From positions 269,051 through 333,050 of the forward strand of contig JACPES010000003.1 in NCBI GenBank assembly GCA_016183365.1: a stretch of DNA of 64,000 bases, written 5' to 3'. Source of the DNA: Candidatus Collierbacteria bacterium. GTDB lineage: Bacteria > Patescibacteriota > Microgenomatia > UBA1400 > JACPES01. Below, piece by piece: positions 12,255 to 14,654 of the stretch (positions within the stretch are counted from its first letter, which is position 1; every line of letters starts with the position of its first letter). Both the position numbers and the translations under genes were made by a program. The notes under the pieces were generated by a model, which was not told the DNA's origin, ran no database searches, and saw only the letters and a list, made by a program, of their open reading frames with translations.

Positions 12255-12375
12255 GATTTTCCCTACCCTTCTTATCCTTCTTATCCTTCTGATCCTTCTA
12301 ATTCTTCTCGTCTTACGCTCCTCTCCTAATATCTATATCTCTCTTAATATCCTTTAAAATCCTTATAATTATCTA

Positions 12376-12405
12376 TTGACAGGCAATGGTTTCAGTCACT
12401 ATACT
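12376..12405 (+). promoter_or_regulatory. Sigma70-like promoter (TTGACA - 18 nt - TATACT) upstream of the 12414 CDS
   Basis: TTGACA at 12376-12381 and TATACT at 12400-12405. The ATG lies 9 nt downstream, possibly giving a leaderless or short-leader transcript. Confidence 0.4.
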
Positions 12406-12413
12406 GTTTTCAA

Positions 12414-13358
12414 ATGAAACTTCGTTTTGCCACAGTTTTTCTCTTTCAATTATTATTGATGTCTGTTTTTGTTCCCAAGATTCAAGCTTGGTGGTTGGTC
12501 GATCAATTCGGCCAGTTGATTAAAATGGATTCGAGCGGCCAGGTTTTAGGTGATGAAGATAAGGCTCCAAAAAAAGAAGATAAAAATGAGATCAAGAGTG
12601 GTGTCAAGGCAGAAACTACAAATACTAATTTTTCAACCAATCCTAAAGGAAATATTGAGCTAAAGTCAGGTGAAAATAAAAGAGAATTTGAAAATAAAAG
12701 AATAAAAATAAAAATGGAGCAGAAAAATGGCGAGCTGAAAATAAAAACAAAAAGTGAATTAACCGGCGAAGAAATTGAAATTGAGACTAGAATGGAAAAT
12801 AAAGAGAGGCCGGAAAAGACAGAGCCGCGGGAATCACGGGAATCGAAAGAATCCGAAGAATCAGTAGAGGTTCAGGAGACGCAGGAACAGCCGGAAAATG
12901 AAACAGAGATAATGAGGATTAGAGAGCGGGAAGAAAAGAACGAAGTTAAGATAAATACCAGAAATGGCGATTTCGTTATTGATAGGAATAATGTCGGAGC
13001 CACTACTAATTTCCCGTTATCAGTAGATTCTTCAACTAATATTTTGACTGTGACCACTCCGTTAGGAGAAAAACAGGTAACTGTTTTGCCGGATCAGGCA
13101 GTTCAAAATATGTTATCCAGGAATGTAATTGATCAGATTTCCGGTCAAGATAGCACCAGTTCATCCAGTCGGGTAAAAATGAGCCAAAAAATCGACGGGT
13201 CATTGGTTTATGAAGTCGAGGGTGAAAAACAAGAAAAACTATTTGGCTTGATGCCGTTGAAATTCAAAAAAACCGCTATAGTCTCCGTCGAAACAGGAGA
13301 ATTAATAGAAACCAAGGAATCTTTTGTTAACAAGTTCCTCGGGCTGATTTCGTTTTAA
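12414..13358 (+). CDS. Secreted hypothetical protein with a Lys/Glu-rich low-complexity region
   Basis: Signal peptide (MKLRFATVFLFQLLLMSVFVPKIQA), a long K/E-rich charged repeat region, and a C-terminal globular part. Confidence 0.55.
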   Translation: MKLRFATVFLFQLLLMSVFVPKIQAWWLVDQFGQLIKMDSSGQVLGDEDKAPKKEDKNEIKSGVKAETTNTNFSTNPKGNIELKSGENKREFENKRIKIKMEQKNGELKIKTKSELTGEEIEIETRMENKERPEKTEPRESRESKESEESVEVQETQEQPENETEIMRIREREEKNEVKINTRNGDFVIDRNNVGATTNFPLSVDSSTNILTVTTPLGEKQVTVLPDQAVQNMLSRNVIDQISGQDSTSSSSRVKMSQKIDGSLVYEVEGEKQEKLFGLMPLKFKKTAIVSVETGELIETKESFVNKFLGLISF

Positions 13359-13681
13359 CTTTTCAGTGAACGTTTTCGAACAAATTCGAACTCATTTCAA
13401 GTCAATGGGTTAGCTAGCCCCGCCACGGCAGGGCTCGCAAGGTGAACGCGGCGCCTTTACACTGAGCAGTTCGACTGAACTCACTGTAAACCTGCCGAAC
13501 GAACACCCGCCGCGCTGGAGTTTATCCTAAGCGGTGTCGAGAGGTTCAGGACAAGCTTTTTCGGAAGCGTAGCGATCCGGAAAGTAAACTATAAATATGA
13601 GCAGGTATTTCGAATTTTTTACCGAGTGGAATTTTTGGAATACAACAGTCAGCCCCGGAATAAATTCGCCGTTTTTATTTT

Positions 13682-13757
13682 TGGTGACGCTACCCGGATT
13701 CGAACCGGGGTTACCAGGATGAGAACCTGGTGTCCTGGGCCTCTAGACGATAGCGCC
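13682..13757 (-). tRNA. tRNA-Glu (anticodon CTC), CCA encoded
   Basis: Reverse complement GGCGCTATCGTCTAGAGGCCCAGGACACCAGGTTCTCATCCTGGTAACCCCGGTTCGAATCCGGGTAGCGTCACCA. The D-arm is identical to canonical tRNA-Glu. Anticodon loop TTCTCAT. Good cloverleaf. Confidence 0.9.
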
Positions 13758-14003
13758 AATTGAACCTAATTTTATCAGCTTTTCAATCAGAGATCGACTT
13801 TTATAACCTTTAATTTGATATTCTCTTTTCCCAGCCTCGGAATAAGTTTCGTATTTTTCAGTGTGAACTATTTCTATGGGAAGCCTAGATTTAGTAAATT
13901 TACACTTTTCCAATAGATGCTCCTGATATCTATTATTTAAATCAACAGTCGAGCCTGTGTAGTACCGATTATCTTTACATTTGAGAATGTAAACGCTGGG
14001 CAT
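13743..14003 (-). CDS. Small GIY-YIG nuclease-domain protein
   Basis: Trimmed to the ATG at 14001-14003 (MPSVYILKCKDNRYYTGSTVDLNNRYQEH... KREYQIKGY), a GIY-YIG-type core. The upstream ORF extension is low-complexity and overlaps a structured noncoding region. The 3' end overlaps tRNA-Glu by 15 nt. Confidence 0.65.
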   Translation of the reverse strand: MPSVYILKCKDNRYYTGSTVDLNNRYQEHLLEKCKFTKSRLPIEIVHTEKYETYSEAGKREYQIKGYKSRSLIEKLIKLGSIGAIV

Positions 14004-14235
14004 AATTGTTAGGATGTCCCGGTTCGATGATATCGAACCGAGGATGCTCGATCCGATCCGAAGAATCGAGATCGGCAAGAACCTGCTGTCTCCCGACACA
14101 TTTGTGTCGAGGATTCTCGACCTTTGGTCGGAACTAGCCATTAGACGATGGGGTCAACGCTTTAAACTATTCAGAATTATATCAACCCCTAGGTTATAAT
14201 TCTTATTGTCCTTATAATTTTTATCGTTTATAAAC

Positions 14236-14306
14236 TGCGGGATCGGCTAACGGTAGGCCACGACACTCTGAATGTCGGTATCTAGGTTCGATTCCTAGTC
14301 CCGCAA
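14236..14306 (+). tRNA. tRNA-Gln (anticodon CTG)
   Basis: TGCGGGATCGGCTAACGGTAGGCCACGACACTCTGAATGTCGGTATCTAGGTTCGATTCCTAGTCCCGCAA. The U1-A72 pair is typical of bacterial tRNA-Gln. Anticodon loop CTCTGAA. CCA not encoded. Confidence 0.88.
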
Positions 14307-14402
14307 CAAATTTTTTCTTAAGAAAAAATTTGTCCTGAGCGAATGGCGAGCGTAGCCGAGCCAGAGTCGAAGGACCAGTTTCTAAAAAAACTGGAAAATA
14401 TT

Positions 14403-14654
14403 ATGTATTTTGTCTACATGCTTCTTTGCCAAGACGGAAGCTATTACATCGGTTCTTCAAACAATGTTGAGAAGAGGCTGAAAGATCATTTAAATGGTAA
14501 AGGCGGCAAATATACAAAGAGCCATAAACCCCTCAAATTGGTTTATCAAGAGGCGTTGGGAAATAAATCAGAGGCATTAAAACGCGAATTTCAGCTTAAA
14601 CAATGGTCCCGTGTAAGAAAAGAAATATTAGCTCAATCTGTTACGTTTCCCTAA
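14403..14654 (+). CDS. Small GIY-YIG nuclease-domain protein
   Basis: ATG at 14403 (MYFVYMLLCQDGSYYIGSSNNVEKRLKDH ... REFQLKQW). The ORF extension upstream of 14403 is encoded by a palindromic repeat element (14332..14375) and is probably not translated. Confidence 0.65.
   Translation: MYFVYMLLCQDGSYYIGSSNNVEKRLKDHLNGKGGKYTKSHKPLKLVYQEALGNKSEALKREFQLKQWSRVRKEILAQSVTFP

Follow-up and report, generated by a model that had tools for sequence, protein, structure and literature searches.

Putative selfish UPF0213-type GIY-YIG cassettes at a divergent tRNA-Glu/tRNA-Gln locus in Candidatus Collierbacteria

Why do two very small GIY-YIG genes lie against two divergent tRNA genes in a member of Candidatus Collierbacteria (Candidate Phyla Radiation (CPR), Microgenomates), and what is the structured DNA that separates them? 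The question is raised by a 64,000-nucleotide (nt) stretch of contig JACPES010000003.1 (the window, i.e., the whole stretch of DNA that was analyzed), where a sequence-only reading had recognized mirror-image tRNA plus GIY-YIG units. The two tRNAs and the two GIY-YIG genes, here denoted G1 and G2 and coding for proteins of 83-86 amino acids (aa), are indeed present, but do not form mirror-image units: G1, read along its own strand, is located upstream of tRNA-Glu and overlaps it, the TAG stop codon of G1 being nt 13-15 of this tRNA (the B allele), whereas G2 is located 95 nt downstream of tRNA-Gln. The spacer between the supposed mirrored units is actually the 5' two-thirds of another, resident tRNA-Glu gene, split by two hairpin modules. 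Judging from comparison with related genomes, we consider it fairly probable that G1 and G2 are free-standing selfish cassettes of the UPF0213 type that resemble homing endonuclease genes. On the simplest reading, a cassette consisting of G1 and tRNA-Glu would have entered the resident tRNA-Glu gene, leaving its native 5' part behind the native promoter.

The G1 side of the locus is organized as follows (loci of relatives, of which about 180, precisely 181, were fetched, are labeled L001 and so on):

13682..13757, minus strand: functional tRNA-Glu(CTC), the 'B' allele, with CCA encoded (ARAGORN; Rfam tRNA model, 58.7 bits)
13743..14003, minus strand: G1, 86-aa GIY-YIG protein of the UPF0213 type (PF01541, E = 3e-13)
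14008..14016, minus strand: remnant of resident tRNA-Glu nt 36-48 (CATCCT--AAC), directly 5' of the G1 start (alignment to the L011 tRNA with the modules excised)
14017..14077, minus strand: module 2, a bulged-hairpin doublet between tRNA nt 35 and 36, in the anticodon loop, with units H+ 14045-14077 and H- 14017-14044 (covariation; removal restores the tRNA sequence)
14078..14090, minus strand: resident tRNA-Glu nt 23-35, GACAGCAGGTTCT (100% match to L175 tRNA nt 24-36; one mismatch to L011)
14091..14133, minus strand: module 1, a bulged-hairpin doublet between tRNA nt 22 and 23, in the D-arm, with units H+ 14114-14133 and H- 14091-14113 (covariation; same site in L171, L175, L176 and L177)
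14134..14155, minus strand: resident (A-type) tRNA-Glu nt 1-22 (20/20 match to the L011 tRNA)
14156..14235, no strand: divergent promoter spacer of the tRNA-Glu/tRNA-Gln pair (near-identical in L007-L009, conserved in L011 and L184; inverted repeat)

TATAAT is found on both strands of the promoter spacer (14173-14181 and 14195-14203), and we infer that 14156..14235 is the promoter for a transcript comprising the leader, G1 and tRNA-Glu(B).

The two tRNA-Glu copies differ in origin as well as in completeness. The truncated copy matches the resident-type tRNA of L011 at 42 of 47 positions, compared with 37 of 48 for the adjacent functional tRNA; the respective values are 35/36 (against L011) and 30/36 for the truncated copy of L184, and 33/34 (against the tRNA of its relative L176) and 27/34 for that of L177. 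The A allele is the same in L011 and L007 (100% identity), and tRNA-Glu(B) is only 78% identical to it, so that the locus displays replacement by a foreign allele, a pattern of the homing type. Given that the resident copy is truncated and a complete divergent tRNA-Glu is located downstream, the disruption of an essential gene appears to be offset by a carried replacement, not by splicing; tRNA-Glu(B) would have arrived with G1. It is extremely unlikely that the module-bearing copy itself functions as a tRNA-Glu gene whose intervening sequences are cut out of the RNA, similarly to introns or to the intervening sequences of rRNA. Excision of both modules does yield a continuous, exactly restored tRNA sequence with zero duplicated target bases, and the rRNA genes of CPR carry many non-intron insertions, some of which encode GIY-YIG proteins (PMC11270868). 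However, the copy has lost its T-arm and 3' acceptor strand and ends at about nt 48, at the G1 start; no pairing is seen in the window, L171, L175 or L177 between its 5' acceptor strand and the 3' strand of the downstream tRNA; a 3' exon that would complete the same tRNA was not found, the downstream sequence being a complete, self-folding tRNA with a different acceptor stem; and no match to the group I intron model of Rfam (Intron_gpI) was detected at E <= 10 on 13200-14500.

The same arrangement recurs at other loci. Seven additional loci (L171, L172, L174, L175, L176, L177 and L181) encode proteins 61-70% identical to G1 and, together with the window, comprise the G1 subfamily, which is found in at least five gene neighborhoods. 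As anticipated from the window alone, the adjacency of the GIY-YIG and tRNA genes is conserved: all eight genes abut a complete tRNA-Glu (CTC in seven loci, TTC in one), with the open reading frame (ORF) ending between 5 nt before and 22 nt inside the tRNA. Because the ORF ends within tRNA-Glu, the C-terminal tails of these proteins, such as GAIV, GPIV and APSSNG, are translated tRNA. A truncated tRNA-Glu copy is present 5' of the ORF in six of the eight loci (the window, L171, L172, L175, L176 and L177) and ends at nt 34-51, right at the G1-type start codon. Module 2 is kept in L174, preceded by a decayed tRNA-like part; L181 has no upstream tRNA copy and has a 3' tRNA fragment just downstream. 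Such 3' fragments downstream of the cassette tRNA are found in L171, L174, L176 and L181.

Several peculiarities accompany these loci. In L171 (3322-3490), an 85-nt unit made of the last 19 nt of tRNA-Glu and its flank is tandemly repeated downstream of the tRNA. In L176 (690-1216), a 146-aa ORF with no family match has the 3' end of tRNA-Glu on one side and a perfect 24-nt repeat of that end on the other, and looks like a small integration beside the G1 cassette. Assemblies tend to break nearby: contigs L177-L180 begin right before the tRNA-like leader, 121 nt away from G1; L003 ends at the end of tRNA-Glu(B), and L005 ends 2 nt past it. These breaks are consistent with the duplicated tRNA segment confusing assemblers.

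Partial tRNA duplications commonly flank integrated elements in prokaryotes, and tRNA-targeting integrative elements, like the G1 locus, show a partial-tRNA direct repeat around foreign DNA while tRNA function is kept (PMC9897764). The partial tRNA-Glu duplication could accordingly be the attL/attR scar of a decayed integrase-type element, as might also be suggested by the 24-nt 3' tRNA repeat that flanks the 146-aa ORF in L176 and by the tandem 3' tRNA fragments in L171. Nevertheless, we regard this origin as very unlikely. No tyrosine or serine recombinase is encoded between or beside the repeats in the eight G1 loci, the cargo being a single 86-aa gene, and the same minimal unit of 0.35-0.5 kb is found in at least five gene contexts. 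It is the 5' rather than the 3' portion of the tRNA that is duplicated, and the native promoter stays on the dead copy; integrase-mediated restoration of tRNA genes works the opposite way. Finally, the functional tRNA is a complete divergent allele that serves as a replacement, not a chimera.

The states of this locus in close relatives point in the same direction as the remnant. With Nramp, G2 and the secreted-protein gene as anchors, four related arrangements were recovered from Collierbacteria, with flanking genes about 80-86% identical among these genomes; the region itself was found at 100% identity in six Logan contigs, all from one sample series. The ancestral order appears to be arginyl-tRNA synthetase (ArgRS), short-chain dehydrogenase (SDR), secreted protein, tRNA-Glu (minus strand)/tRNA-Gln (plus strand), and Nramp. 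In L011, both sites are empty: an intact tRNA-Glu, 81 nt, tRNA-Gln, 6 nt and Nramp follow one another, with no GIY-YIG gene, and the window is homologous to this locus (86% identity between L011 4820-4996 and window 14134-14309) from tRNA-Gln across the promoter spacer up to tRNA-Glu nt 22, where the similarity stops. In L185 and L007-L009, an intact tRNA-Glu, 100% identical to that of L011, is followed by two hairpins, by another GIY-YIG gene (G1', with 37-42% identity to G1 and G2) and by 38-nt tandem hairpin repeats; G2 is present in these genomes as well (82% identical). L182 and L184 have the layout of the window, i.e., the first 35 nt of tRNA-Glu, a hairpin, a third GIY-YIG gene (GIYx, 42% identical to G1) and a complete divergent tRNA-Glu. 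The G2 site, between tRNA-Gln and Nramp, is empty in L011 and L184 and filled in the window, L007 and L185. The existence of empty, filled and differently filled relatives indicates that one tRNA pair hosts none, one or two GIY-YIG genes, and four subfamilies of these (G1, G2, G1' and GIYx) are found at this single pair. Thus, presence/absence polymorphism of the homing type is seen at an identical site in close relatives, both at the G2 site and at the tRNA-Glu site, which is empty in L011.

The neighborhood of the tRNA pair varies in other respects. The window (12255-13358) lacks the dehydrogenase gene that is found between ArgRS and the secreted-protein gene in L182, L184 and L185; L011 has the dehydrogenase and lacks the secreted-protein gene. 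An in-frame TGA at L011 4399-4401 breaks the dehydrogenase frame (a pseudogene, a sequencing error or recoding), and a long nested inverted repeat that is absent from the window directly follows the ArgRS stop (L011 3845-3960). The 38-nt tandem repeat downstream of G1' (L185 6557-6636; L007 1-145) consists of two GCTNAGC-centered hairpins, and contigs L007, L008 and L009 all end within it. In L184, a low-quality assembly or a decaying genome, frameshifts split every one of the genes for ArgRS, dehydrogenase, secreted protein, GIYx and Nramp, the last of which is followed by an IS1595-type transposase.

What, then, are the hairpin modules that interrupt the dead tRNA copy? The hairpins quoted in the sequence-only reading are real: CGGTTCGAT/ATCGAACCG is a perfect 9-bp inverted repeat (14020-14040) contained in module 2, and CGACAC-ATTT-GTGTCG is contained in module 1. 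The spacer (14004-14235) is also stem-dense, as claimed, with z = -4.4 on the minus strand and -5.4 on the plus strand relative to shuffled sequences (0 of 200 shuffles folded as well). Each module consists of two abutting bulged hairpins, H+ and a reverse-complement-type H-, with units of the form TNCCG / helix / CGAGN'A that contain a bulged A. Across about 20 units, the closing pair N:N' is always paired (C:G in 11, G:C in 5, T:A in 4). The inner helices have wholly different sequences and always pair: counted end-inward over 11 modules, the pairs number 45 and 70, compared with about 7 for shuffled sequences. RNAalifold detects both-sided compensatory changes in 6 of 14 pairs of module 1 and 11 of 22 pairs of module 2. 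The signature CGAGNATNCTCG occurs twice in the window, compared to 0.02 occurrences expected, and is confined to G1 leaders among the fetched loci (about 1.1 Mb searched); all four unit hairpins of the window are in the G1 leader, with single units elsewhere at chance level. Two other parses of these sequences were discarded. A cloverleaf with a CGAG-NNNN-CTCG middle arm was dropped, folding and covariation showing two abutting bulged hairpins instead, and CATCCT inside module 2 was rejected as tRNA nt 36-41, being part of the hairpin base, after which the tRNA resumes.

Modules are always located in dead tRNA copies, never in the functional gene. The D-arm site 22|23 is used in five loci and the D-loop in L172; the anticodon-loop site is 35|36 in most loci and 33|34 in L176; in L181, a module is found in the T-loop of the 3' tRNA fragment; and in L171, module 2 holds an additional, third doublet precisely at the junction of its H+ and H- units. 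These precise, position-variable sites suggest that the modules behave as discrete insertions. Given that the doublet looks the same on both strands, we favor a role at the DNA level: the modules might be recognition or cleavage structures for the nuclease, or might interrupt the tRNA direct repeat and so prevent deletion of G1 by recombination, our confidence in any one such role being far below that in the selfish-cassette interpretation.

Alternatively, the spacer could act in RNA, as a cis-regulatory or processing leader, i.e., a tRNA-derived structured 5' untranslated region of the G1 mRNA, with G1 and G2 being ordinary host genes co-transcribed with tRNAs. The strong conserved helices with their compensatory changes, the last hairpin ending 13 nt before the G1 ATG, the position of the leader behind a conserved tRNA promoter, and the single-copy presence of UPF0213 genes without tRNA neighbors in many Firmicutes are all compatible with this possibility. 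We nevertheless consider it rather unlikely: a function in RNA would not call for strand-symmetric modules (H+ followed by H-), the insertion sites vary in L176, L172, L181 and L171 as described above, the GIY-YIG genes are intact in L177, L181 and L184 where modules are missing (only module 2 in L177), and three different GIY-YIG subfamilies together with an empty state at one locus in close relatives are unlike a housekeeping operon. A more radical proposal would be that the minimal GIY-YIG proteins of the UPF0213 type are structure-specific nucleases for the cloverleaf or cruciform DNA of tRNA genes, that the doublets are non-autonomous modules mobilized by these nucleases, and that the two jointly form a new mobile system that aims at tRNA genes by shape rather than by sequence, with precise insertion into loops and no target-site duplication. 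The precise loop insertions, the nested doublet of L171 and the strand symmetry of the modules prompt this idea, which we nonetheless hold to be quite unlikely.

The GC-rich stretch on the far side of tRNA-Glu, between the secreted-protein gene and the tRNA, comprises two parts:

13359..13400, plus strand: conserved tail after the secreted-protein stop, with a TTCGAA-CAAA-TTCGAA hairpin (81% identity to L182/L183/L184 over about 100 nt across the stop)
13401..13681, no strand: lineage-specific GC-rich, hairpin-rich spacer (no Rfam match; unrelated sequence in sister genomes)

The sequence-only reading had proposed this stretch of about 320 nt as a candidate non-coding RNA (ncRNA). It is correctly described as free of ORFs (none over 45 aa) and richer in G+C than its surroundings (up to 0.54 against a window mean of 0.41), and only the quoted AGCCC...GGGCT spacing needs amendment, to 10 nt from 11. 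Its folding departs only moderately from that of shuffled sequences, with z-scores of -3.6 for the plus strand and -1.2 for the minus strand. The absence of ORFs, the GC enrichment and the z-scores of this stretch and of the spacer would all suit a novel stand-alone structured ncRNA in 13359-13681 and/or 14004-14235, which we nonetheless judge highly improbable. In Rfam 15 scans, only the two tRNAs reached the gathering threshold across the whole window, and relaxing the cut-off to E <= 10 on 13200-14500 brought no family to either 14004-14235 or the 320-nt stretch. Beyond nt 42, nothing of the stretch is conserved where sister genomes retain the genes on either side: the place of 13401..13681 is taken by some 600 unrelated nt with a 55-aa ORF in L182/L184 and by a 439-aa ORF in L185, and a blastn comparison with the loci of relatives, including three syntenic sister genomes, matched only nt 1-42. 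Within the stretch, a GC hairpin occupies 13416-13435, an imperfect palindrome of 67 nt covers 13441-13507, and a dispersed REP-like hairpin motif has one copy at 13526-13544. Neither this stretch nor the spacer is repeated elsewhere in the window by blastn self-comparison, a method that missed the hairpin families, which were found only with structure-aware patterns. Decayed genes were also sought: tblastn with the L011 SDR, the L007 G1' and the L185 439-aa ORF gave no match, nor did a GIY-YIG profile run against six-frame translations with stops masked. The lack of an Rfam match and the lack of conservation are two of the three outcomes that the sequence-only reading had named as refuting its proposal. 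An ncRNA in the 320-nt stretch is thus not supported, and we regard the stretch as a fast-turnover spacer at a recombination hot spot, not a gene. As for the spacer 14004-14235, it is a conserved structured element with compensatory changes in at least seven independent G1 loci, but not a free-standing ncRNA, being fully accounted for by the tRNA fragments and modules.

On the other side of the promoter spacer, the tRNA-Gln gene and G2 are arranged as follows:

14236..14307, plus strand: resident tRNA-Gln(CTG) (ARAGORN; Rfam, 59.6 bits; orthologous in L007, L011, L184 and L185)
14306..14333, plus strand: perfect 14+14-nt A/T palindrome starting from the tRNA-Gln 3' end, the left edge of the G2 insertion (inverted repeat)
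14332..14375, plus strand: G2 leader hairpin, GTCCTGAGCG...GAGTCGAAGGAC, of the dispersed REP-like family (motif copies)
14403..14654, plus strand: G2, 83-aa GIY-YIG protein of the UPF0213 type (PF01541, E = 2e-20; the NCBI model begins 12 nt earlier)

The A/T palindrome is absent from L011 and L184, and the same architecture is seen in L107. The REP-like family, with the consensus (gtcat)CCYRAGCG-variable-GTCGARGG(atct) and covarying flanking stem bases, has six copies in the window against 0.06 expected, all at gene boundaries (13526, 14334 and 41773 on the plus strand; 17086, 34118 and 59980 on the minus strand), and is also found upstream of many G2-like genes in other CPR genomes. Ten nt in the loop of the G2 leader hairpin (14353-14362) are 90% complementary to nt 5-14 of tRNA-Gln (14240-14249), which may be due to chance.

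Association with tRNA genes extends to G2-like genes, which were collected from one genome per species with a G2-only alignment, a mixed alignment of G1 and G2 being too diverse for a genome scan. In CPR, 10 of 39 loci have a tRNA within 200 nt, as the sequence-only reading would lead one to expect; the density is 0.77 per kb within 200 nt compared to 0.18 per kb at 200-2500 nt. The corresponding values for Firmicutes are 2 of 36 loci and 0.21 per kb versus 0.03 per kb. The usual neighbor in CPR is an initiator-type tRNA-Met (CGCGGGG...CCCCGCAAC) or tRNA-Gln, with the gene just downstream and its hairpin leader beginning a few nt from the tRNA 3' end. Examples with such neighbors within L091-L170 are L098, L107, L123, L142, L148 and L161, and the tRNA-Gln of the window has the same ...CCCGCAAC 3' end. 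The tRNA-Met(CAT) that adjoins the GIY-YIG gene is usually of the initiator type; the notion that G2-like genes are flanked by duplicated tRNAs was rejected, the paired tRNA-Met(CAT) genes being different species that are 53-68% identical.

The proteins themselves are minimal members of the GIY-YIG superfamily. G1 and G2, which are 43% identical, score 50.2 and 73.0 bits with PF01541 (curated cut-off, 22.6 bits), and this domain fills nearly their entire length. Columns Y5, Y15, G17, R25, H29 and E62 are invariant in 25 homologs including G1 and G2, and the GIY-YIG motif columns are likewise invariant within the G1 subfamily. The only significant matches in PDB, spanning residues 2-79, are two structures annotated as UPF0213, 1ZG2 (BH0048 of B. 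halodurans) and 1YWL (EF2693 of E. faecalis), with E values of 5e-11 for G1 and 2e-17 for G2; these proteins of the UPF0213/COG2827 family share the size and the catalytic-domain-only build of G1 and G2 and are annotated as hypothetical. Searches of defense and phage libraries gave weak partial matches only. Proteins of this family are widespread, with solved structures and no known function. The linkage differs between the major groups: the family is not tied to tRNA genes in Firmicutes, whereas in CPR it is tRNA-adjacent, with presence varying between close relatives.

If the selfish-cassette interpretation is correct, a G1-type protein would cut tRNA-Glu genes that lack the cassette, and the break would then be repaired from a donor that has it, with the flanking tRNA segments as homology arms. 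The carried complete tRNA-Glu would make the insertion harmless. A single transcript would lead from the native promoter through the leader and G1 to tRNA-Glu, such that expression of this tRNA would depend on read-through of G1, and RNase P, by cutting at the 5' end of the tRNA, would sever the stop codon from the G1 message and keep the output of the nuclease down. G2 with its REP-like leader would have been inserted, or lost from relatives, exactly between the tRNA-Gln 3' end and Nramp.

A number of observations weigh against this interpretation. We infer the mobility of the cassettes from comparative patterns only. L011 is closer to L007 than to the window, so that events may have run in either direction, and G2 may be ancestral and lost from L011. 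The whole 1.9 kb from ArgRS to tRNA nt 22 differs from L011 and the right-hand junction is unclear, for which reason several superimposed events are possible. In L172 and L176, the truncated copy nearly equals the tRNA of the same locus (51/52 and 42/45), a pattern that local duplication or gene conversion would explain no less well than invasion; tRNA-Glu(B) does not clearly cluster with the tRNAs of the closest G1 homologs, these tRNAs being short. The modules are not required for the cassette, as indicated by their absence from L181 and L184 and that of module 2 from L177. Viral contigs contained no relative of G1, no cassette and no module, the single pattern match being a chance one inside a coding sequence. 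With respect to the proteins, no separate DNA-binding or recognition domain was found in G1 or G2, whereas characterized homing endonucleases carry a DNA-binding domain; the group I intron endonuclease model TIGR01453 matched over its first 36 positions only, below the cut-off; and we know of no nuclease activity or site specificity for UPF0213 proteins.

How does the locus compare with known systems? Literature searches on GIY-YIG with tRNA and CPR/Patescibacteria, on UPF0213 and on YhbQ found no description of the cassette or of the hairpin doublets. The mobile ORFs (mORFs) of fungal mitochondria seem to offer the closest precedent for the G1 cassette: they insert with a foreign copy of the displaced gene end, in atp6 of Allomyces and in atp6, atp9, cox2 and nad3 of Glomus (PMC3630166). 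As at the G1 locus, an essential gene hosts a free-standing endonuclease ORF (GIY-YIG in atp9) that brings along a divergent, functional version of the part it displaces, and the native part is left as a non-functional remnant that matches close relatives (PMC3630166). The G1 locus differs in that the target is a bacterial tRNA gene, the cassette carries the complete gene and leaves the 5' rather than the 3' part as the remnant, the nuclease is a minimal UPF0213 protein, and the remnant bears hairpin-doublet insertions. SegB of phage T4, a free-standing GIY-YIG homing endonuclease in a tRNA cluster, cleaves the homologous region of a relative and thereby favors inheritance of the neighboring tRNA region (PMC2330249, PMC2988022, PMC13096335). 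It resembles G1 and G2 in being encoded among tRNA genes but, unlike these putative nucleases, is a larger, phage-encoded two-domain enzyme with demonstrated site-specific cleavage, and involves neither the tRNA duplication nor the hairpin modules of G1.

The G1 modules are similar to the proteobacterial REP/BIME/REPIN sequences in being inverted pairs of imperfect bulged palindromes with conserved structure. Unlike these, they are not dispersed; many dispersed copies, as in REP/REPIN, are found for the family of the G2 leader. RAYT (Y1 transposase) was not seen in the loci examined, in which no dedicated test for it was made. The insertions in the rRNA genes of CPR belong to the same group of organisms and resemble the G1 locus in occupying stem-loop-tip sites in structural RNA genes and in containing GIY-YIG ORFs while being neither group I nor group II introns (PMC11270868). 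The outcome is different: rRNA tolerates excision without ligation, whereas at the G1 locus the tRNA is inactivated and replaced.

These observations suggest that, at least in CPR, UPF0213 genes encode selfish nucleases and are linked to tRNA genes to the exact nucleotide, and the loci point to candidate substrates, namely the cassette-free tRNA-Glu gene and the bulged-hairpin doublets. Cassettes of this kind may also have practical consequences. The tRNA-like fragments and duplicated segments that they leave can break assemblies, with several contigs ending in or beside the cassette region, and the cassettes can mislead tRNA annotation and screens for ncRNA. More generally, G1 would represent a third way for a mobile nuclease gene to reside in an essential gene for a structural RNA, by bringing a spare gene, with no splicing and no excision of an intervening sequence.

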